Origin: Eledone cirrhosa
Taxonomy: Eukaryota
Direction of reading: 5' to 3'
NCBI GenBank assembly: GCA_964016885.1
Contig: OZ024741.1
Coordinates: forward strand, 279,930,001 to 279,994,000
DNA: 64,000 nt
Shown: positions 7,030 to 61,620 of the stretch, one piece after another
Numbering within the stretch: position 1 is the first letter of the stretch
How the letters are laid out: every line of letters begins with the position of its first letter
Notes under the pieces: model-generated
Told to the model about the DNA's origin: nothing
Databases searched by the model: none
The model's input: only the letters and a program-made list of their open reading frames with translations
Program-made: the position numbers and the translations under genes

Positions 7030-7500
7030 CAAATGAAAAAATTGAAGAAAGGCATAGAAAACAAGGCAAACCCATGAAGACCTGGTTGAGGTCTGCGGAG
7101 GAAGATCTGGCAGACATAGGCCTGGCCTGGGAGCAAGCCTATGATAAGGCTTGTTACTTAAAAGTTGAAGTCTGTTCTAAGCTGAAGGCTCATCAGACCG
7201 GTGCTTATCTCCAGTTTCCTTGGCGTTAAGTAACAGAGTACAAGCCTTTCTCTGGATAGGATGCTGGTTTATCTCGGGATTAACACCCCAGCTACTGCTG
7301 GTACTCACTCTCAGTAGAGTGTACTTGAGCAATATGAAATAGTGCTTTGCTCAAGAACACATTACAACACCCTGTCCAGGAATTGAACCAATGACATTAT
7401 GATCATAAGTCCAACATCCTAACAATTGGGCCATGCAGCTTGCAACCATGCCAAATCTTTTATCATCCAATGCTCCACAGGGGACAAAGGGAACTAAAGA
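7030..7500 (+). mobile_element. Old RTE C-terminal fragment (RKQGKPMKTWLRSAEEDL) interrupted by a family-2 SINE at ~7160-7440 (-)
   Basis: GRP-TW-like motif. The SINE module is shared with other copies in the window. Confidence 0.5.
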
Positions 7501-8304
7501 AGATGTGTCTTCCTGATGAAATTCAACTTCTCAAAACAGTTCTTTGTAATTATTATTATACACGAGAGGAGATAGAGAGGGAAGATTGCTGTGAACCATG
7601 AAGGTGAGTTAGCTTTGATCCTCCCTTAATGCCATTTCATTTATGTTGATAACACCCTGGGGAAAGAGACATGAACTGTAAATCTCTCTATTCTTTTCAG
7701 TACTACCAACACAACATCACCAAAACCAGAAAAAGAAATCATATTGTTGAACTATTGCTAGCTCTTTATAAAGTTCAGACAGATTTACACAAGAGTGAAG
7801 TTTACACATCTTGGATGGTCAACTCCCTCCATATATGCATGTAGACAAGATAAGAAAAAGATAAGCCTTGCTTTCCAATTATGTCCTCTATCTACTGCTA
7901 GTTTAATAGTTCTCCTCTCATCCTTTTCCTACCATATTTCAAACAAAACACACCACCCGTGTCTATCAATTAATTTTGTAAATAATCAACAATTTGATGG
8001 GATTTAGTAAAATAACTAACCATATTAATAAACTGGTGTTTAGTACATAGCTTAAAGATATTCTTCCATAACATTAGACTTTTTTAGTTTAAATATGAAT
8101 AGTTTAAAACAAGAGGTTTGTCATTGTAGAATTGCAGCAGGTTCGGGCAGATTGGTAATCAAAAGGACTAACACACACACCCATTTCCTCTGGCACAATT
8201 CAAGCTAAATATAAACTACACATGGCTTCGCCTGTTATCATACAATACAGTAAAAGATAGGTTGAAATGGATGTTTAGCTCTTCTCAAAGAAATGGAAAT
8301 TTAA

Positions 8305-8426
<122 letters not shown>

Positions 8427-9678
8427 GTGACCTAATTTTTTTTTTTTTAAACCTACACTATATGAAAAATATTTATCCTCAATTTATAAATTTATAAAAC
8501 ATTCCATTCTGAGAGATTCAGTCATTTGTTCAATTTTTTAAATGTATTTTCTATGTTCTATCATCATCATCACCCTTTAACATCCAATTTTACATGCTAG
8601 CATGGGTTGGACGAGTTGTCCCTTTAAGATAAGCCAGATCAGATGACCATCTTTTGCTCATATAGAACTGATTTTGGCTTGGTTTCTATGGCTGGATGCC
8701 CTTCCTGATGCCAACCACATTTACAGTGTAGACTGGGTGATGGGTAAGGTGTTAAGATTGTGGGAGGTGTATAGAAGGGGGAGGGAGTGTAAAGCAGTGC
8801 CTATTGTGCACATGGGAAGACAGGTCTTCTTTATTTCTGCATTTATATAATCAAGTACTGTATATTTTATTTGTGTGTGTATAGATAATTTATAAATAAA
8901 ACATTTAAAATGCCATAGTGATCTTTAATACATGATGGTTGTTTCTAATTAAACTGGAATTTCCACAGGGTCAACTAATTTGTTGTAAAGTGTTTATATT
9001 TCAATTTAAACCTTCCATCATAATTTTAGGTAAGAAACTTTTATTATATTTCAAGCACCATATTAACTTAATCACTCCAAATTTTGGATTAATTTTAAAT
9101 CACAGGTAGTGTCTTTCATTGAAAATATAATAATGAAAGTGTTAAAATGATTTCTTACACACAAGTATAAATTCCCTGAAATTCATAGAGGATTGTTGTT
9201 GTTTAGCCCCAAGTCAACACTGAATTAGTAGACCTATAACCAAATAGGTCCCAGTAAGGCTATTTTGTATTTTTAATCTAACACTGTAACATTATCCAAT
9301 GAGTATGCCACCTTTAAGACAATAGTGTGTAGTGAGGGAGATTTGGCTGCTACTTCTAGCAGGTTCAACTTCTACATAAAGGCTTTGTCTGTGGGCATCT
9401 TTACATATGAATGCCCATTTCATGAGCTTTCATGTATAACACATTTTAATGCTTACATGCATGTATGTATAAAGCAAATATCATGTCTGTAATATATGCA
9501 TATGTACATGCCTAGTAATCAGCTCTGACTTTTGAAGTGAAATATATAATTGTGAATCAAAATTGGAATATACAAACTTTGAATCACTGAGAAATCACTG
9601 CAGATGAAAAAAAAACAATAGCAACAACAAAAATGTTATGGTTAAATTTTAAAATATTTGGCAAAGATCTTTGCTTAC

Positions 9679-9755
9679 CACGACAAAATACAATCAGAGA
9701 AAGTCTCGAAACTGGTGAAGAGAGCGAAAACAATCCAATACATCATCCATTTTAC
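9679..9755 (-). CDS. REEP: Internal coding exon of a receptor expression-enhancing protein (REEP1-4 subfamily; TB2/DP1/HVA22 domain)
   Basis: Minus strand reads polypyrimidine-TACAG|GTAAAATGGATGATG...TTGTCGTG|GTAAGC. The 77 bp encode [25 protein letters not shown](W), matching the REEP1-4 signature [13 protein letters not shown]. Phase 0 in and phase 2 out. Not shown in the ORF track. Confidence 0.92.
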
Positions 9756-16651: not shown

Positions 16652-18884
16652 CTTTTCTTCATTCAAAATAGGAACCCTGATACAATATTCTGATTAAGCA
16701 TTCAAACAGGATAACCCTCTTCCTGCTGGAGGGAGGTAAATCTCTAATCTAGGACACCATGTGCTGTGACATGTTCTCTACCTGATTGCCATCGAGACCT
16801 CTAGTGCCCTCATTTTTGAAAATGTTTACCTCTGCAAAATAGGAAGGAGTGCATCCTGTCTGAGGAAAGAGCCTCTATCAAGTGGAGTGGCTGATGTAGC
16901 AGGTGTTACTGGCTGTTCCCTGTGGTGAGACATTAACCATTTTGTCTGCAAGGTACAGTTGAGATATATCATCTAAACCAAGGTGTTGATCCTGATGTTC
17001 CTGCCACTTTTTCCCTAATTTGCACTATGCAATTTTTTCTTTCTTTTTTTTTTTATGACAAACTATATAATCCAATTGAAATTTGAATAAAAAATCTCAA
17101 GTTTAAAAAAAAAAAAATGTCTATACTCCATTCTATTATAAAATATTTTATGCTCCATAACAGACTTGGAATGTTTTCTTCCCAATTCTCTTTAAACTGT
17201 ACATTTAAAATTGTGGTTGTAACTAGACTCACTGAAATTCTTTATACCAACATAGGCTATATGAGTTACATTAGTAAAAGGCAGTAGTCATTTAATGTTT
17301 GGATATTTAATCTATACTAAAAGGTTTGCAGAAAGTACTAATGCGTATTTTTATAATGACATAACCATTAAAGTTTATGTATCTTTTTTTAAAGACCTCT
17401 CTATATCAACACTTTATTTCAGCAGCAAATTCTTTAAGTGTTTTCATATCAATTTCTAGCCTTTCTCCATACAACACGGTGGCTTTTATCTCCACACAAG
17501 TTTTGTATGAAATACTAAATTTTCATGAATTGAATATTAAATCAGTAACTATTTTGTTGCATTAAGAAACTAATAAAAGATTTCAATTCAGTATAGACAA
17601 ACAATTGAAATACGTAGCAATCCATTGATGTAGACATGAATTGAATTTAGGGTAGGAGAGGAGATGATTCAGCTGGCAATTTTAGGTAAAAGAGAAGTAC
17701 CTTGGCACATACTTGAAATATATCAAGTCATCTTGTGTAAATATTAATGGGAAATTTGACAACTTGCCATTAAATGGTAGCTTATATAAGAATTTGCAAT
17801 GTGATATCTAATCAAATACCTAATTGATATTAAATGCAGTTTTTGTACTGGTTTTAGTACGTAACATAGCTAACTTTGAAATTATCTGTTAAAGAGAAAC
17901 CATAGGTTTTCTGATTAATGATAATCCATTTACAGCTGTTCTCATCACTAATTAATTGAAATTTCTTGATTTACTACATCAAGTATGTTAGTGACCACTT
18001 TACAGAAAAAATATTGGCTTTTCTTTCAGCGACTTATAAAAGTAACAATACAAAGAACTTAACAAATATCACACAAATATATTTAAAATGTTTGGATAGC
18101 ACTGTATTCATCACAAAAGCAGTTCTTTCCATCTTATTTAGAGCTATAATTTAGATAATTCCATAAATTCACAAACGTTTCTTTGTCACATGATATTCCA
18201 GAAAGTTAAGATGCCTATCTTAGCTGAAAGTTAACACCACCACCTCTTCTACTCCTTCCCGTCAAGTCTAAATTGATTAGAAGCTTTGATATTATCCTCT
18301 ACTTGTTGCCATATTTCCAAGATGAAAGATAAGTGCATAGCTATATGCCGTGGGGAGTGGGGTGGAATAGAGAAAAAACAGATATCTAGTTTGTTGACCT
18401 CTATATCAAACTAATGTAGTTTCTAGCCAGGAACAAAAGTACGCATGGATAATTTTCTCCACATAGTATTTAGGCAGATAATAAATAAGAAAGTATAGAA
18501 GAAGAAACGTTTAACTCAGTGAAATAAATGGCACACATATTCAAATCGCTTCCTATACTAGGGACAAGTGATGTAAAATGAAATAGTGCTTAATAGTGAT
18601 AATTATGATACTGATTAGATATCTGATCTCCTCAATGGGTTGCAGTTGGTCTATGAGAATGGAAGATCCTTATAATGTATGTTATTTCAACTTTACTGAT
18701 ACAATATCTTTAAGGGAATTCTATATACCAATAGTACTGTCAGTATTTCTAGTTTGATATGTGAAGTGAATTAAAAAGCCAAGCAAGTCATTATTTTTGA
18801 AAATATTTGAAAACCCTAGGTAGCGTCCTTTATTAGAAATATGGTAATGAATGGGTTGAACCATAAAGTTTGAACTGATTAAGC

Positions 18885-37262: not shown

Positions 37263-37287
37263 ATATATATTATATATATTATATATA

Positions 37288-37516
37288 TCATCATCATCAC
37301 CGTTTAACGTCCGTGTTCCACGCTTGCATGGGTTTGGACGGGGGTAGTCCCACTTGAGGCAAGAGTGATTGTCTTGCTCGCATAGGACTGTCTTGAAGGT
37401 TTTCTACAGTTGGATGCCCTTCCTAACACCAACCACATTTACAGTGTGGGTCTGGGAGGTTTTTACCGTGTTGCCTACACGGCCACATTACAGCGTGGAC
37501 TGTGTGTTTTTTTGTC
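37288..37516 (-). mobile_element. RTE family A 3'-UTR-only insertion
   Basis: Near-identical to the 3' UTR of adjacent copies, with a (CAT)n tail. Confidence 0.92.
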
Positions 37517-37529
37517 ATATAATATATAT

Positions 37530-39620
37530 ATCATCATCATCATCATCATCAGCGTTTAACGTCCGTGTTCCACGCTTGCATGGGTTTGGACGGGGGTAGT
37601 CCCACTTGAGGCAAGAGTGATTGTCTTGCTCGCATAGGACTGTCTGGCAGGTTTTCTACAGTTGGATGCCCTTCCTAACACCAACCACATTTACAGTGTG
37701 GGTCTGGGAGGTTTTTACCGTGTTGCCTACACGGCCACATTACAGCGTGGACTGTGTGTTTTTTTGTCGTGACACCTACACGATCTCATTTGTTTCGGCC
37801 TCGATGGCGCGGCACCAACATAACTTTACATAGAACGGGGTGGTGTGGATCGGGTGGGGGTGGTGGGACGGGGTGTATTTGTTAGAGATGCCTACTGGCT
37901 GGAGTAGGTTTTACTATATATTTAGGTAAGGCGGGTCTTCTCTGTTACTGAGTACCGCCAAAGGTCTCGGTCCAGTGACATTGTCTTGGAGAGGTGTAAG
38001 TGTGTGATGTCGGAGTTTATCAGCTCGTCCCAGGTTTTTCTAGGTCTGCCTATTCCGTGACTACCGTCTATCTTTATTGCCCTGCACTTTGTTATACAGC
38101 TATCGACTTTCATGCGCATCACGTGTCCATACCAACGTAGCCTTCTCTCGAGTAAACAACATCTGATCCCTCTTATCTCTAATTTATTCCTTAGTTCGTT
38201 TATGCTTTGCCGTTCACGTATATTACTGTTACACATCCAGCGGAGCATGCAAGCTTCGTTCCTCTCTAGTCTGCGTATATCCTCTGCACACAATGCCCAG
38301 GTCTCACTGCCATGCAGCATTGCTGTTCGTATGCAGGCATCGTACAACCTGCCTTTCATTTTTAGTGAGAACCCTTTAGCAGCTAATAGTGGTATAAGCT
38401 CTCTGAACTTTTTCCAACCAGTTCTGACTCTAGCTACAGTACTTTCAGAGCACCCTCCCCCACTGCTGATTTTATCGCCCAGGTAACGGAAGCTGTCCAC
38501 TATTTCTATAGAACCCTCTGCGCAATTGAAAGAGCTAGTAGTTTGTGGGCACTTGCTGCTACTTATTGCACCAGAGCACCGGCCACATGTAAAATCTATG
38601 TTCTTAGTTAGCCTACCTGTGATCCCACTACATCTTTTATGCACCCATACTTTGCATTTAGGACATAAAATGGAGTTTCTACCTACGCCTTTCCTACACA
38701 CCGAGCACGACCATTTCCCAGAAGGGACCGCCGCCTTGTTTTCTTTCCTACAAACTAGTACTTTGGTCTTAGCCAGGTTAATTTTAAGTCCTTTTGACTC
38801 TAGGCCGTGCTTCCATGTTTGGAATTTCTTCTCTAGCTCGGCCATTGATTCCGCTATGAGTGTCAGGTCGTCTGCGTATAGGAGTTCCCATGGGCAGCCT
38901 GTCTTGAACTCTTCTGTTATGGCCTGAAGGGCAATAATAAATAGTAGTGGACTGAGAACAGAGCCCTGATGGACGCCGACTTTTACGCTAAACTCTTCAC
39001 TATATTCGTTGTTAATTCTAACCTTGCTGACTGTTTCTTTATACATGGCTTGTATAGCCCTCACAAGCCATTCGTCAACGCCTAGTTTTCTAAGAGCCCA
39101 CCAGATAATGGAGCGGGGGACTCTGTCGAAGGCTTTCTCCAAGTCGACAAAAGCTAAGTAGAGGGGTTTACCTTTAGCTAGGTACTTCTCTTGTAGTTGT
39201 CGTACTATGAAAAGAGCGTCTGTGGTACTTTTGCCTGACACAAACCCGAACTGCATTTCATCTAGGTCAATTCTCTCTCTGATTAGCTGCGCTATTACTC
39301 TTTCCGTGACCTTCATGACCTGGTCGATTAATTTAATGCCTCTATAGTTACTCCTATCTAGGGCGTCTCCTTTACCCTTATAACAGTTAACGATGATGCT
39401 GCTATGCCAGTCCTTCGGAACAACCCCGTTTTGTACGACTTGGTTAACTATGCGGGTGACCATGGTGTGTCCCACCGTGCCAGATGCCTTCAGCATCTCA
39501 GCAACTATTTCCGAAGGCCCAGCCGCCTTACCAGTCTTCATATCCTTGATTGCCTTACTTATTATACTCCCTCGACTAACACTGCTGGTCCCTCTATTGG
39601 GTCGATATGGGGGAGACTGC
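37530..39620 (-). mobile_element. 5'-truncated RTE LINE (family A) with an open RT region
   Basis: ORF 37922-39541 (539 aa), nearly identical to 32763-34730. Confidence 0.95.
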
Positions 39621-44733: not shown

Positions 44734-50527
<5,794 letters not shown>

Positions 50528-50663
50528 TTGGAATAAATGCTCTGAAATAGCGATATATATGTGAATATAGACATAGAATATTCGAAAATATTCTGTATGT
50601 TTATAATAAACATTTTGAAGACCTAATCGCTATAGAATAGAATACGTCACGTATTACAATTAG

Positions 50664-50752
50664 ATTCTCGATAAAAGCAAGGGAAGTAATCTACGCGTTT
50701 CATTCTTGTTAGAAATCTTCAGGACTACATATCCAGTGCTTTTATCGAGAAT
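50664..50752 (-). ncRNA. Predicted type I hammerhead ribozyme with an intact catalytic core
   Basis: GUAGUC-CUGAAGA-U-UUCU(AACA)AGAA-U-GAAAC-GC-GUA^GAUUAC (core 50686-50728). Stem I is extended by GGA/UCC and a perfect 16-bp helix. Confidence 0.82.
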
Positions 50753-51021
50753 GACACAGCTAGAGACTTATAGAATACTTAGCTGTGTACAGGAACTGGT
50801 TTGAAAGAGCGGTTGCCGGTCCGGCAGAAATTAGAAATTGGAATAAATGCTCTGAAATAGCGATATATATGTGAATATAGACATAGAATATTCGAAAATA
50901 TTCTGTATGTTTATAATAAACATTTTGAAGACCTAATCGCTATAGAATAGAATACGTCACGTATTACTTTCAAACCAGTTCCTGTACACAGCTAAGTATT
51001 CTATAAGTCTCTAGCTGTGTC

Positions 51022-51109
51022 ATTCTCGATAAAGCACTGGATATGTAGTCCTGAAAATTTCTAACAAGAATGAAACGCGTAGATTACTTCCCTTGCTTTT
51101 ATCGAGAAT
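51022..51109 (+). ncRNA. Inverted copy of the hammerhead with a core mutation (CUGAAAA, G8A), probably impaired
   Basis: gtagtc ctgaaaa tttctaacaagaat gaaacgcgta gattac at 51045-51087. Confidence 0.65.
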
Positions 51110-51154
51110 CTAATTGTAATACGTGACGTATTCTATTCTATAGCGATTAGGTCT

Positions 51155-52804
<1,650 letters not shown>

Positions 52805-52811
<7 letters not shown>

Positions 52812-53316
52812 GATCGAGTATCGAAAAATCGGCGCACGAGTTAACGAAAAACGAAATCCGATATGAGCGCAGAGGGCTCAATAATTCAGATGAATCAGAG
52901 CTATAACTATCGTTAAAATACCGTCACATATAGAACAAGTCTACAATCAACCATACGATTTAAATCGATAAAGGAAGATTCGGGCCAAACAGATAAAAAA
53001 TATCAATAAAACAATACGTCAATAATTTAAATGAATGTAAAATCATACCCGGACCCACTAGAAAGGTGTTAAATCTAGCTTCATGGGTTTCTGTAAATCC
53101 TTAGACAGTACTCTATCAGCTCACATATAAATATAAAAGCCTACTAGAATAAGTGGAATGGAGTTTACGTCGTCAACGAGTTTTATCCTGGCGGCAAGGA
53201 GTCAACTAGCGGTGAAAAAACGCACATGGCATTAGACAAGGGAGATGACCCCTATATCCGCGAAAATAATTCGAGTGAATGTGGAAATACACATATCGAA
53301 TTAGAGTGCTCAATAG
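52805..53316. mobile_element. Unclassified CpG-rich ~510-bp insert in (TA)n
   Basis: Sharp boundaries with TA arrays and a composition like the other young inserts. No family motif confidently recognised. Confidence 0.4.
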
Positions 53317-53334
53317 ATACATACATACATATAC

Positions 53335-53385
<51 letters not shown>

Positions 53386-53671
53386 CAATATATATATATA
53401 TACATATATATAATACATATATATATATACATATATATATACATATATATATACATATATATATATAATATATATATATACATATATATATAACATATAT
53501 ATATATACATATATAATATACATATATATATACATATATATATATACATATTATATATACATATATATATATACATATACATAATATATATACATATATA
53601 TATATACATATATATATATACATATATATATATACATATATATATATACATATATATATATACATATATAC

Positions 53672-53704
<33 letters not shown>

Positions 53705-53740
53705 CATATATATATGACATATATATACATATATATATAC

Positions 53741-53836
<96 letters not shown>

Positions 53837-53841
53837 ATACA

Positions 53842-53873
<32 letters not shown>

Positions 53874-53877
53874 CATG

Positions 53878-53921
<44 letters not shown>

Positions 53922-54113
53922 CATATACATATATATATATATACATACATATATATATATACATATACATATATATATATACATATAATATATATATATA
54001 CATATACATATATATATATACATATACATATATATATATACATGTATACATATATATATATACATTATACATATATAATATACATGTATACATATATATA
54101 TATACATGTATAC

Positions 54114-54148
<35 letters not shown>

Positions 54149-57100
54149 CATGTATATATTATATATACATACATGTATATATATATATATATACATGTAT
54201 ATATATATATATACATACATGTATATATATATATACATACATGTATATATATATATATATCATACATGTATATATATATATACATACATGTATATATATA
54301 TATATACATACATGTATATATATATATACATACATGTATATATATATATATACATACATGTATATATATATATACATACATGTATATATATATATACATA
54401 CATGTATATATATATACATACATGTATATATATATATACATACATGTATATATATATATACATACATGTATATATATATATACATACATGTATATATATA
54501 TATACATACATGTATATATATATATACATACATGTATATATATATATACTACATACATGTATATATATATATACACATACATGTATATATATATACATAC
54601 ATACATGTATATATATATAACATACATACATGTATATATATATATCATACATACATGTATATATATATATACATACATACATGTATATATATATACATAC
54701 ATACATGTATATATATATATACATACATACATGTATATATATATACATACATACATGTATATATATATACATACATACATGTATATATATATACATACAT
54801 ACATGTATATATATATACATACATACATGTATATATATATACATACATACATGTATATATATATACATACATACATGTATATATATATACATACATACAT
54901 GTATATATATATACATACATACATATATATATACATACAATACATACATAATACATACATACATACATGTATATATATATACATACATACATACATATAC
55001 ATACATACATACATGTATATATATATACATACATACATACATATACATACATACATCTATATATATATACATACATACATCATCATCATCATCATCAACG
55101 TTTAACGTCCGTGCTCCACGCTCGCATGGGTTTGGACGGGGGTAGTCCCACTTGAGGCAAGAGTGATTGTCTTGCTCGCATAGGACTGTCTGGCAGGTTT
55201 TTCTACAGTTGGATGCCCTTCCTAACACCAACCACATTTACAGTGTATATATACATACATACATGTATATATATATACATACATACATGTATATATATAT
55301 ATATATACATACATACATGTATATATATATATATATATACATACATACATGTATATATATATATATACATACATACATACATGTATATATATATATATAT
55401 ACATACATACATGTATATATATATATATACATACATACATGTATATATATATATATATACATTACATACATGTATATATATATACATACATACATACATG
55501 TTATATATATATATATACATACATACATACATACATATATATACATACATACATGTATATATATATACATACATACATACATGTATATATATTATATATA
55601 CATACATACATACATACATACATATACATACATACATACATACATGTATATATATATATACATACATGTATATATATATATATACATACATGTATATATA
55701 TATACATACATACATACATACATGTATATATATATACATACATACATGTATATATACATACATACATGTATGTATATATACATACATACATGTATATATA
55801 CATACATACATGTATATATATATACATACATGTATATATATATACATACATGTATATATATATACATACATGTATATATATATACATACATACATGTATA
55901 TATATATACATACATACATGTATATATATATACATACATACATGTATATATATATACATACATACATGTATATATATATACATACATACATGTATATATA
56001 TATACATACATACATACATACATGTATATATATATACATACATACATTACATACATGTATATATATATACATACATACATACATACATGTATATATATAT
56101 ACATACATACATGTATATATATATACATACATACATACATGTATATATATATACATACATACATACATGTATATATATATACATACATACATACATGTAT
56201 ATATATACATACATACATATATATATACATACATACATACATATATATATACATACATACATGTATATATATATACATACATACATGTATATATATATAC
56301 ATACATACATGTATATATATATACATACATATATATATATATACATACATACATGTATATATATAATACATACATATATATATATATATACATACATATA
56401 TATATATATATACATAATATATATATACATACATATATATATATACATACATATATATATATACATACATGTATATATATATATACATACATACATGTAT
56501 ATATATATACATACATACATGTATATATATATATACATACATACATGTATATATATATATACATACATACATGTATATATATATACATACATACATGTAT
56601 ATATATATATACATACATACATGTATATATATATATACATACATACATGTATATATATATATACATACATTATATATATATATACATACATACATGTATA
56701 TATATATATACATACATACATGTATATATATATATACATACATACATGTATATATATATACATACATACATGTATATATATATATACATACATGTATATA
56801 TATATAAATACATACATGTATATATATATACATACATACATGTATATATATATACATACATACATGTATATATATATACATACATACATGTATATATATA
56901 CATACTTACATGTATATATATATACATACATACATGTATATATATATACATACATACATGTATATATATACATACATACATGTATATATATATACATACA
57001 TACATGTATATATATATACATACATACATGTATATATATATACATACATACATGTATATATTATACATACATACCATGTATATATATATACATACATGTA

Positions 57101-57250
57101 TATATATATACATACATACATGTATATATATATACATACATGTATATATATATAAATACATACATGTATATATATATACATACATACATGTATATATATA
57201 TACATACATACATGTATATATATATACATACATACATGTATATATATACT

Positions 57251-57281
<31 letters not shown>

Positions 57282-59524
57282 CATACATACTTGTATATAT
57301 ATATTACATACATACATGTATATATATATACATACATACATGTATATATATATACATACATACATGTATATATATATACATACATACATGTATATATATA
57401 TACATACATACATGTATATATATATACATACATACATGTATATATATATACATACATACATGTATATATATATACATACATACATGTATATATATATATA
57501 CATACATGTATATATATATACATACATGTATATATATATACATACATACATACATGTATATATATATACATACATACATACATGTATATATATATACATA
57601 CATACATACATGTATATATATATACATACATACATGTATATATATATACATACATACATGTATATATATATACATACATACATGTATATATATATACATA
57701 CATACATGTATATATATATACATACATACATGTATATATATATACATACATACATGTATATATATAACATACATGTATATATATATACATACATACATGT
57801 ATATATATATACATACATGTATATATATATACATACATACATGTATATATATATACATACATACATGTATATATATATACATACATACATGTATATATAT
57901 ATACATACATACATGTATATATATATATACATACATGTATATATATACATACATACATGTATATATATATACATACATACATACATGTATATATATATAC
58001 ATACATACATACATGTATATATATATACATACATACATACATGTATATATATATACATACATACATACATGTATATATATATACATACATCATACATGTA
58101 TATATATATACATACATACATACATGTATATATATATATACATACATACATGTATATATATATACATACATACATGTATATATATATACATACATACATG
58201 TATTATATATATATACATACATACATGTATATATATATACATACATACATGTATTATATATATACATACATACATGTATATATATATCATACATACATAT
58301 ATACATACATACATATATATATACATACATACATATCATACATATTATACATACATACATGTATATATATATATACATACATACATGTATATATATATAC
58401 ATACATACATGTATATATACATACATACATGTATATATACATACATACATGTATATATACATACATACATGTAGTATATATACATACATACATGTATATA
58501 TATACATACATACATGTATATATACATACATACATGTATATATATACATACATACATGTATATATTACATACATACATGTATGTATATATACATACATAC
58601 ATGTATATATATACATACATACATGTATATATATATACATACATACATGTATATATATATACATACATACATGTATATATATACATACATACATGTATAT
58701 ATATATACATACATACATGTATATATATATACATACATACATGTATATATATATACATACATACATGTATATATATATACATACATACATGTATATATAT
58801 ATACATACATACATGTATATATATATACATACATACATGTATATATATATACATACATACATGTATATATATATACATACATACATGTATATATATATAC
58901 ATACATACATGTATATATATATACATACATACATGTATATATATATACATACATACATGTATATATATATTACATGTATATATATATACATACATACATA
59001 CATACATGTATATATATATACATGTATATATATATACATACATACATACATACATACATACATGTATATATATATACATGTATATATATATACATACATA
59101 CATACATACATGTATATATATATACATACATACATATATTATATACATACATACATGTATATATATATACATACATACATACATGTATATATATATACAT
59201 ACATACATATATATATACATACATACATGTATATATATATACATACATACATGTATATATATATACATACATGTATATATATATACATACATACATGTAT
59301 ATATATATACATACATACATGTATATATATATACATACATACATGTATATATATATACATACATACATGTATATATATATACATACATACATGTATATAT
59401 ATATACATACATACATGTATATATATATACATACATACATGTATATATATATACATACATACATGTATATATATATACATACATACATGTATATATATAT
59501 ACATACATACATGTATATATATAT
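53317..59524. repeat. Compound array dominated by a ~20-bp unit (TACATACATACATGTATATA)
   Basis: Directly visible. Interrupted by an RTE 3' fragment. Confidence 0.96.
55079..55246 (-). mobile_element. RTE family A extreme 3' fragment
   Basis: (CAT)n tail plus ~150 bp matching the family A 3' UTR. Confidence 0.92.
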
Positions 59525-59525
59525 A

Positions 59526-61492
59526 GATACATAATGTCCCTCATCAACAATCAGAGAAGAGCTGAAGAGGCCTGGGCCATTGAGAAGATCAAACTCAATC
59601 CCAAAGTGTTCTTTTTATTTGCAAAAAAACACAAAATCACTGGCTCTACTGTTGGCCCTCTAATTGATGAAAATGGCACTCTTCAAGACAATGCTAAAAC
59701 CATGGGTGAGATACTGCAGAAACAATACTGCTCTGTTTTCAGCAATCCTGATATGGCCGATCTGGGCTGTATCGGCGATGTTACTCCCCATTACACCTTA
59801 TCGGACATAACGTTTGGCGCCCCTGATGTCTTGGCGGCAATAAAGGAAATCAAGCATAATTCAGCAGTAGGTCCCGATAGGTTCCCTGCTTGTGTCTTGA
59901 AGGCGTGTCAACACCAACTTGCTTCTCCTCTTGCCAATCTGTGGCGGAACTCACTGGATGCTGGATATGTGCCAGAAAACCTTCTATCCCAGTCTGTTGT
60001 CCCAGTTTTCAAAAAGGGAAACAAATCCCTTGCCGTGAATTACCGTCCAATCTCACTCACCTCTCATATCATTAAGGTATTTGAGCGAGTGGTGAGATCG
60101 CGAATGACCCACTTCCTTGAGAGTAACAATATGCTGAACTCCAACCAGCATGGATTCCGTAATGGAAGGGATTGCCTGACGCAACTACTGCATCACTTTG
60201 ATGACATTTTGAGAGCCTTGGGAGAGGGTTCCAACACTGATGTTATCTACCTTGATTTCAGCAAGGCCTTTGACAGGGTTGATCATAACATTCTACTGAG
60301 AAAGCTGTCCAATATTGGTGTCACTGGAAAGCTGCTGCAGTGGATCAAGAGCTTCCTGTCAAACAGAACCCAACATGTTGTAGTTGAGGGAGTCAAATCA
60401 AGCCCAGCCAAAGTCAGTAGTGGAGTCCCACAAGGCACTGTGTTGGGCCCACTTCTCTTCATCATCTATATTAATGACATCACTGACATCATCAAACACA
60501 GCAACATTAAAATTTTCGCTGATGATTCCAAGCTCCAAAAGGTCATCAATGGCGTGGATGACCGGATAAGCCTTCAGTCAGACCTACTGGCTGTTACCCA
60601 ATGGGCAGAAAAGAATAACATGTTACTGAACGAAGACAAATTCGAACTGATCCACTTTGGAAAAGAGGATGCTCTGAAACTCCCGTACTCCCTTCCCTCC
60701 GGGGAAACTCTCGTGGCATCTAACAACATCAGAGACTTGGGAGTAACCGTGGACAGCAACATAAGCTGGACCACGCATATAAGCAGCAAAGTTGACATGG
60801 CCCGCAGAATGTGTTCCTGGATCCTCAGAACCTTCCAGTCGAGAGATTCCCGCACCATTATCCTTCTCTTCTCTACTTTCGCCCGACCACACCTTGAATA
60901 CTGTTGTCCACTGTGGTCTCCCCACACGAAACAAAGTATCATGAAACTTGAAGCTCCTCAAAGGGCAATCACGAAAAAGATAGATGGCATGTCAGACCTT
61001 GACTACTGGGGTCGATTGGAAAACCTGAAACTTTACTCACTCCAACGTCGCCGTGAGCGTTATATTATCTGCATGATGTGGAAAATGTTCCATCATCACT
61101 GCCCAAATGATGTTGGCATCGCCTTCAAGATACACCCAAGGCTTGGGCCCCGTGCTATCCGTCCCATTCAAAAATCTAAATCGCAACTCATAACAACAAT
61201 ACGGCACAATTATTTCACCTCAATCGGCCCTGCTCTCTTCAACATCACACCAGGACACGTCAAAACAGAAACTGACCACACAAAATTCAAGAAGTCTTTG
61301 GACAAATTCCTCCAAGTAATCCCGGACAAACCACCCACACCCGGATATGTCTCCGCAAACAGTAATTCTCTTCTCGAATGGGCCATGGTGCCCAAATCCT
61401 GAATTGAAAGACTTCGCCAGGTGGTGCTATTAAGTTAGACATGGCCTGGGCCAATACTGGCCAAAACATTTCAAAGTTATTCAAAGTTATTC
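59526..61492 (+). mobile_element. 5'-truncated CR1-group LINE with an uninterrupted RT ORF (to 61402)
   Basis: [51 protein letters not shown] and [11 protein letters not shown]. Short 3' UTR ending in a (TTCAAAGTTA)2 tandem tail. Confidence 0.93.
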
Positions 61493-61620
61493 ATACATGT
61501 ATATATACATACATACATACATACATACATGTATATATACATACATACATACATACATACATGTATATATACATACATACATACATACATACATGTATAT
61601 ATACATACATACATACATAC

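Follow-up and report, generated by a model that had tools for sequence, protein, structure and literature searches.

What moves a 310-nt non-coding unit with a hammerhead ribozyme through a cephalopod genome, and what does a copy do once it has landed inside a gene? The unit in question lies at positions 50528..51155 of a 64,000-nt stretch of the Eledone cirrhosa assembly GCA_964016885.1 (contig OZ024741.1, positions 279,930,001 to 279,994,000 of the forward strand; hereafter the window). A sequence-only reading had proposed a retrozyme or a family mobilised by Penelope-like elements (PLEs), whose ribozyme could cut the pre-mRNA of a REEP gene. We conclude that the unit belongs to a retrozyme family of recognised type, for which the evidence on mechanism is unusually direct. 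Judged by its sequence, the family fits the definition of a non-LTR retrozyme, and our main reading, to which we assign a probability of about 0.78, is a non-LTR retrozyme that is likely copied from RNA circles into (AT)n by PLE-type reverse transcription from two starts.

Results

The window carries a head-to-head insertion

The element at 50528..51155 is a single insertion from a high-copy repeat family with a head-to-head layout, rather than a two-unit tandem. A complete 310-nt unit on the minus strand (50528..50837), whose outer (left) end adjoins (TA)n at start site B (unit position 1), is followed by a second minus-strand unit, 5'-truncated in the RNA sense (50838..50967; unit 1-130) and 100% identical to the first. 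An inverted arm on the plus strand (50968..51155; unit positions 280 to 91) meets the other arm via 1 shared base. Of the 310-bp period originally described, the unit itself stands; the direct repeat spans only 130 nt, and the remainder, 50968-51155, is inverted. Reverse-complemented, this arm differs from 50618-50807 at 2 points, the core change G8>A (51056) and a 1-nt deletion. Its outer end is not at site A as usual, and in this the window copy stands alone among the 40 inverted arrays that have two ends and parsed cleanly.

Site A, a AUAUAUAU patch (unit 26-33) adjoining the putative first reverse-transcription start (unit 34-36), is found on the minus strand at 50553..50563. The tail between sites A and B (50528..50561, minus strand) measures 25 nt as seen and ~34 nt allowing for the AT match. 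The whole element is enclosed by its insertion target, an (AT)n-type microsatellite tract with no strand (44734..59533). Elsewhere in the window, ~2 kb of coding-like sequence (59522-61499) resembles a LINE reverse transcriptase by eye, and a 252-nt two-copy tandem with a related dispersed repeat starting with (CAT)n (37265-37768 and 55066-55245) is probably a SINE-like family.

Each unit encodes a hammerhead predicted to act as a dimer

The type I hammerhead occupies 50686..50728 on the minus strand, and the core reported from the letters alone proved complete: stem I (GUAGUC/GAUUAC), CUGAAGA, stem II (UUCU/AGAA), GAAAC and a palindromic ACGCGU stem III. The predicted cut after GUA, between 50692 and 50691, agrees with the sequence. 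An extended stem I (50664..50752, minus strand) adds a 3-bp helix, internal loops and the perfect 16-bp helix (50664-50679/50737-50752) noted before; the hairpins listed for the rest of the unit are all present. We correct the earlier description on a further point: the base of stem II, below its 4 bp, is a U.U mismatch. Because of this mismatch and a stem III loop of 2 nt, the ribozyme is predicted to act as a dimer via ACGCGU, a principle described for such hammerheads (PMC4209133). A second hammerhead in the inverted arm (51045..51087, plus strand) is predicted to be inactive through G8>A at 51056, G8 being required for hammerhead activity (PMC11167929).

Folding of the unit gave a z-score of -5.4, with 0 of 100 shuffles equally stable. 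In the suggested search with hammerhead models, no Rfam hammerhead family matched the element at E<=10 (the rows listed in a wider scan were rejected as microsatellite miRNA noise). The identification as a hammerhead thus stands on the core motif, the variant spectrum described below and covariation with a sister family.

This sister family, of ~313 nt, is older and colinear with the unit, sharing 209 of 300 aligned bases (~70%), and numbers 3,279 candidates at first look. Because MAFFT put the gap at stem III in the wrong place when aligning the two families, helices were registered by hand, and one hairpin without a register was omitted. Among the 45 pairs so registered, 28 are the same, 4 changed on one side, 13 are compensatory and 0 are broken, which supplies the covariation that had been sought; 4 of the 13 fall in the extended stem I. 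Sister copies (L126-L140, L032:2440-2870) resemble the unit in both of their ends and in being inverted, but their hammerhead has an extended stem III and its triplet is GUU or GUC.

The intronic copy is predicted to form double-stranded RNA

The element lies on the REEP strand, as had been noted, and within a REEP intron, between the exon at window 9675-9755 and what we take to be exon 1, located by motif on the minus strand at G000:C2:280015578, 21.6 kb past the window end. The 9675-9755 exon (minus strand, REEP1-4-like) is a weak Pfam match (E 0.46) beside a strong match to the next REEP exon outside the window; exon 2 was not found. The proposal that the ribozyme could cut the REEP pre-mRNA fared poorly. 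A REEP-sense RNA contains the antisense arm ahead of the ribozyme, and the two pair along ~188 bp; the stem I pairing probability is then 0.0, versus 0.78-1.0 in the free unit. With the ribozyme predicted to be trapped in this 188-bp duplex, cutting is unlikely. The locus moreover has one intact ribozyme only, and its 2-nt loop III requires a partner. By these folding predictions, the window copy is likely a dead end whose transcript folds into double-stranded RNA. Since the antisense arm always comes first, inverted intronic copies in general are predicted to make long double-stranded RNA and not to cut the host transcript.

The family is young, abundant and dispersed

The exact 37-nt core of the window type has 858 matches in the genome, and the core with N7, position 10.1 and loop II left free has 16,874; the reversed pattern, used as a control, has 0. 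Unit matches at 99-100% identity stand in tandem arrays on several chromosomes, each unit carrying the type I core and stems. The 310-nt AT-rich unit falls within the retrozyme range (~150-450 nt), and arrays hold from 1 to 20+ units, with up to 20 in one arm. High copy number, dispersed tandem arrays and PLE-type ends (see below) thus support the proposal of a retrozyme or PLE-mobilised family. The first 100 relaxed-core matches resolve into 16 loci across 31 Mb, from which we extrapolate ~1,500-2,700 loci; at 16,874 x 310 nt, the family makes up ~5 Mb of the genome.

We parsed 69 arrays: 20 reached via the first 100 exact-core matches, 17 via unit matches, 16 via relaxed-core matches, the window, and 15 of 20 further fetched loci. 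The five loci left out, on contig C14, form a higher-order satellite; on that contig at ~25.03-25.30 Mb (L239, L240), a retrozyme array and its (AT)n have been amplified together into such a satellite. The sample is non-random, being skewed to the window's haplotype and to contig C1.

Inverted arrays end at two fixed sites, one per arm

A head-to-head layout with an inverted, 5'-truncated arm is found in 51 of the 69 arrays, and in 51/51 the RNA 3' ends point outward into (AT)n. The other 18 are plain, although one (L085) has a tiny inverted piece below the script threshold. When both ends of an inverted array could be seen, one was an A and the other a B end in 39 of 41 cases (37 called by script, and 2 added whose B end had been trimmed by lineage variants), so that the 30-40-nt tail stands at one end only; none of the 41 has two A ends. 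The two remaining cases are L198, which was misparsed, and the window copy, with B plus position 91. Site A ends fall at unit 26-38 and site B ends at unit 1, a few bases either way. Among the plain arrays with both ends seen (n=10), the script assigned 8 to A and 1 to B and left 1 unclear.

Position 34 is G in 389/391 internal units and A, as in the target repeat, in 29/53 site-A units, and the sister family meets its target at the base equivalent to position 34. Together, these data place the true start at ~34-36 and give a tail of ~34 nt. The inner junctions between arms mostly share 0-4 bases and are spread evenly over the unit (1/92 lies 5 nt or less from the cut; KS p=0.37), which excludes a cut linear monomer as template and is compatible with an uncut multimer. 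Direct repeats of 12-34 nt flank L029, L204 and L206; for the most part, an (AT)n context prevents target duplications from being read.

Array-wide variants seldom disrupt the ribozyme

In 32 of the 69 arrays, variants are present in every covering unit of both arms, forming 19 distinct variant sets, and L166 repeats the same 16 differences in three units. Such array-wide sets and repetition are what copying round a circle predicts. The substitution 80T>G on the window-type background occurs in L082 alone, which accounts for 4 of its 8 genome matches; 3 others belong to another lineage and 1 to the C14 satellite. The same array confines 271G>A to the outermost unit of both arms, a pattern that suggests one shared template holding two or more different units instead of a monomer circle. 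In the long arrays L084, L141, L143, L144 and L168, some variants recur at irregular spacing. A strict multimer-circle periodicity in L141, L143 and L144 was ruled out by this irregularity. Recurring variants and the C14 satellite indicate that part of the tandem length arose by local duplication.

Substitutions that disrupt a pair, the core or the palindrome make up 1/27 of array-wide and 30/106 of sporadic changes (Fisher p=0.005; 5 and 13 indels, respectively, set aside, and variants near truncated ends trimmed). The commonest array-wide changes affect N7, loop II, U10.1 (U10.1>A, which closes the mismatch) and stem I, through wobble shifts. That propagating variants spare core and stems argues, from sequence, for a ribozyme under selection. 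Contigs from four sequencing runs were not counted as support: X1, which may be related to the source DNA, varies at N7, 10.1 and loop II only, and X2, X3 and X6 give one self-closing 340-nt contig each, but contigs look alike whether they stem from circular RNA or from tandem DNA.

Several local PLE families have similar ends

PLEs with a reverse transcriptase, a CX4CxxC linker and, at the C terminus, a GIY-YIG domain abound in the genome (10,596 GIY-YIG candidates at first look) and are of the Neptune/Nematis type by motif alone. In several local families the 3' region holds hammerheads whose stem III is palindromic, some with a U3-A8 core, and two share the U.U stem II base of the unit. Their junctions with (AT)n fall at two sites, separated by 40-65 nt. 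Inverted copies in L066, L070 and L072 have one short and one tailed end each, and that in L078 has two short ends.

We searched 70 PLE loci (at least seven families) out of the 10,596 candidates for 3' homology to the unit, with blastn for all 70 and with local alignment against shuffles for 12, and found none. The blastn matches in L032, L070 and L073 came from sister retrozymes that had inserted next to PLEs. Likewise, tblastn with 19 PLE peptides joined no PLE ORF to any of the 69 arrays; the PLE near L212 is separated from the array by an assembly gap (N) and has an unrelated 3' end of its own. This linkage test, proposed at the outset to tell a pseudo-LTR from a retrozyme, indicates that the unit is not simply a pseudo-LTR. 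As these searches turned up no shared sequence or joined ORF, the PLE driver is inferred from insertion anatomy only.

Other short families share the target

A third short non-coding hammerhead family in (AT)n has the same U.U stem II and a 4-bp stem III (L070:6580-6725 and 7500-7705; L073:5130-5330; L066:670-815). Another very young tandem family, non-coding and with a period of 615 nt, is represented near the element by a truncated copy at window positions 52802-53320; its arrays are 99-100% identical on many contigs. One end of this family is fixed and runs into (TA)n, terminating in UUUCUAAU as in a PLE family, and no full hammerhead or Rfam match was found in it. The 615-nt family and an older 616-nt sister have in common a GAAAC-stem-GUC and two GC-rich helices without the CUGANGA box, a conserved structure that is a candidate for an unknown ribozyme or a reverse transcriptase-binding element. 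For the retrozyme unit, a tRNA-derived SINE was also considered and rejected: ARAGORN predicted 0 genes at L083 and L126, although decayed heads could escape it.

Discussion

A model for array formation

By analogy with other retrozymes, a transcribed array would be cut into 310-nt monomers by ribozymes paired through the ACGCGU dimer, and a host ligase would close them. A PLE protein with reverse transcriptase and GIY-YIG domains would then nick both strands of (AT)n. At site A, where the junctions are observed, one 3' end may anneal to the AUAUAUAU patch and prime cDNA from unit 34-36; at site B, likewise seen as junctions, the other would start ~34 nt further 3', at unit 1 of the same template. 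Both cDNAs would circle the template, covering more units in some cases than in others, and be joined, mostly via 0-4 shared bases. The expected product has the structure that we observe, a head-to-head array with one tailed and one untailed end. Use of a single primer would leave a plain 5'-truncated array, usually ending at site A, and some arrays would grow later through local duplication, as seen for several.

A bolder statement of this model, on which we put even odds, is that the arrays record double-primed rolling-circle reverse transcription, with a PLE dimer nicking both strands of (AT)n and copying one ribozyme-made RNA circle from two staggered starts, one per strand, and that retrozymes are PLE parasites within a community of circles selected as RNA. 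If true, double priming would explain the tail and inversion of Penelope itself, and animal retrozymes would be circular-RNA parasites of PLEs. The circle community would comprise the 310-nt family, its 313-nt sister, the third hammerhead family and the 615-nt family without CUGANGA, all evolving under selection as RNA.

Could the same arrays arise without circles? PLEs might instead copy a long, uncut linear transcript of a homogeneous array, with unequal crossing-over or gene conversion homogenising the source and circles as a by-product, an account close to the local-amplification model of a recent preprint (bioRxiv 10.64898/2026.07.22.740005). The two-unit pattern of L082, the irregular recurring variants of long arrays and the C14 satellite suit it, and PLE insertion in vitro works with unprocessed RNA, without ribozyme cleavage (PMC11167929). 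It sits poorly with very young dispersed arrays that are homogeneous across both arms and carry many variant sets, some of them unique, with an L082 variant that has no source array in the assembly, and with propagating variants that spare a ribozyme such a model does not need; we consider it unlikely.

Spread as DNA, through extrachromosomal circles or rolling-circle DNA reinserted at fragile (AT)n with the ribozyme as inherited baggage, would equally yield homogeneous tandem arrays. (AT)n tracts are prone to breakage. Yet this route accounts neither for two fixed ends, one per arm, nor for the outward orientation in 51/51 arrays, nor for selection on RNA pairing and catalytic bases, and appears very improbable. 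Least probable of all is that the unit is the pseudo-LTR of an undiscovered autonomous PLE and the arrays its truncated insertions: end structure and hammerhead style do match those of local PLEs, of which 70 among 10,596 candidates were examined, but the arrays consist of units end to end, up to 20 per arm, and 0/69 are joined to an ORF, where a PLE repeat would interleave units with ORFs.

Relation to known elements

The element shares traits with three known systems. Like the non-LTR retrozymes of coral, mussel and axolotl (PMC7229834), the unit is a ~300-nt AT-rich non-coding sequence with one type I hammerhead; it shares with them tandem arrays, thousands of copies, a weak palindromic stem III and coexistence with PLEs (PMC7229834; vertebrate survey in bioRxiv 10.64898/2026.07.22.740005), and with axolotl HHR_Amex2 the U.U at the stem II base. 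Circles and cleavage have been demonstrated for those retrozymes (PMC7229834), whereas our unit is known from sequence alone. In their accessible parts, these two sources contain no insertion-site evidence for animal retrozymes, nor do they mention a head-to-head layout, two fixed ends, targeting of (AT)n or variants common to a whole array; in the former, the words 'inverted', 'target site' and 'rolling' occur 0 times.

The insertion anatomy matches EN+ PLEs (Neptune/Nematis-type, Naiad, Poseidon), which show partial tandems, inverted 5'-truncated arms, a 30-40-nt tail at one end and microsatellite bias (PMC8557442), two adjacent internal reverse-transcription starts that define the tail (PMC11167929) and dimer-type hammerheads (PMC4209133). 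Unlike them, our arrays have no ORF and many identical units per arm. Site A offers 8 nt complementary to the target, while the anole PLE uses a non-homologous start site, the same on both strands in vitro (PMC11167929), and the strict pairing of one A with one B end is unreported in the available portions of these three papers. Non-autonomous Chlamys PLEs (MRC1; PMC8557442) are likewise non-coding, multicopy head-to-tail and PLE-mobilised; they share 3' sequence with their driver and belong to a clade without canonical hammerheads, in contrast to our unit, with no homologous driver among 70 PLE loci and a ribozyme under selection.

Mobilisation of retrozymes by PLEs has been proposed before (PMC7229834; bioRxiv 10.64898/2026.07.22.740005; reviewed in PMC11722881), in the first case through reverse transcription of circles, to which the 2026 preprint adds local amplification from pseudo-LTRs. 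We found no cephalopod retrozyme family or end-structure analysis in the open-licence literature, although preprint supplements may list invertebrate families or end structures; the giant-squid genome paper gives 235 Hammerhead_1 matches. What this very young family contributes is a record of start sites, strand pairing and template variants across many independent insertions. Its arrays amount to a mutational scan, performed by nature, of a hammerhead of the dimer type, and they yield exact predictions for reconstitution with purified PLE protein. Candidate drivers with long open frames are present in the genome at L061:3809-6622, L063:1775-5062 and L064:3722-5629 (938, 1096 and 636 aa), and these copies are 96-98% identical within two families.
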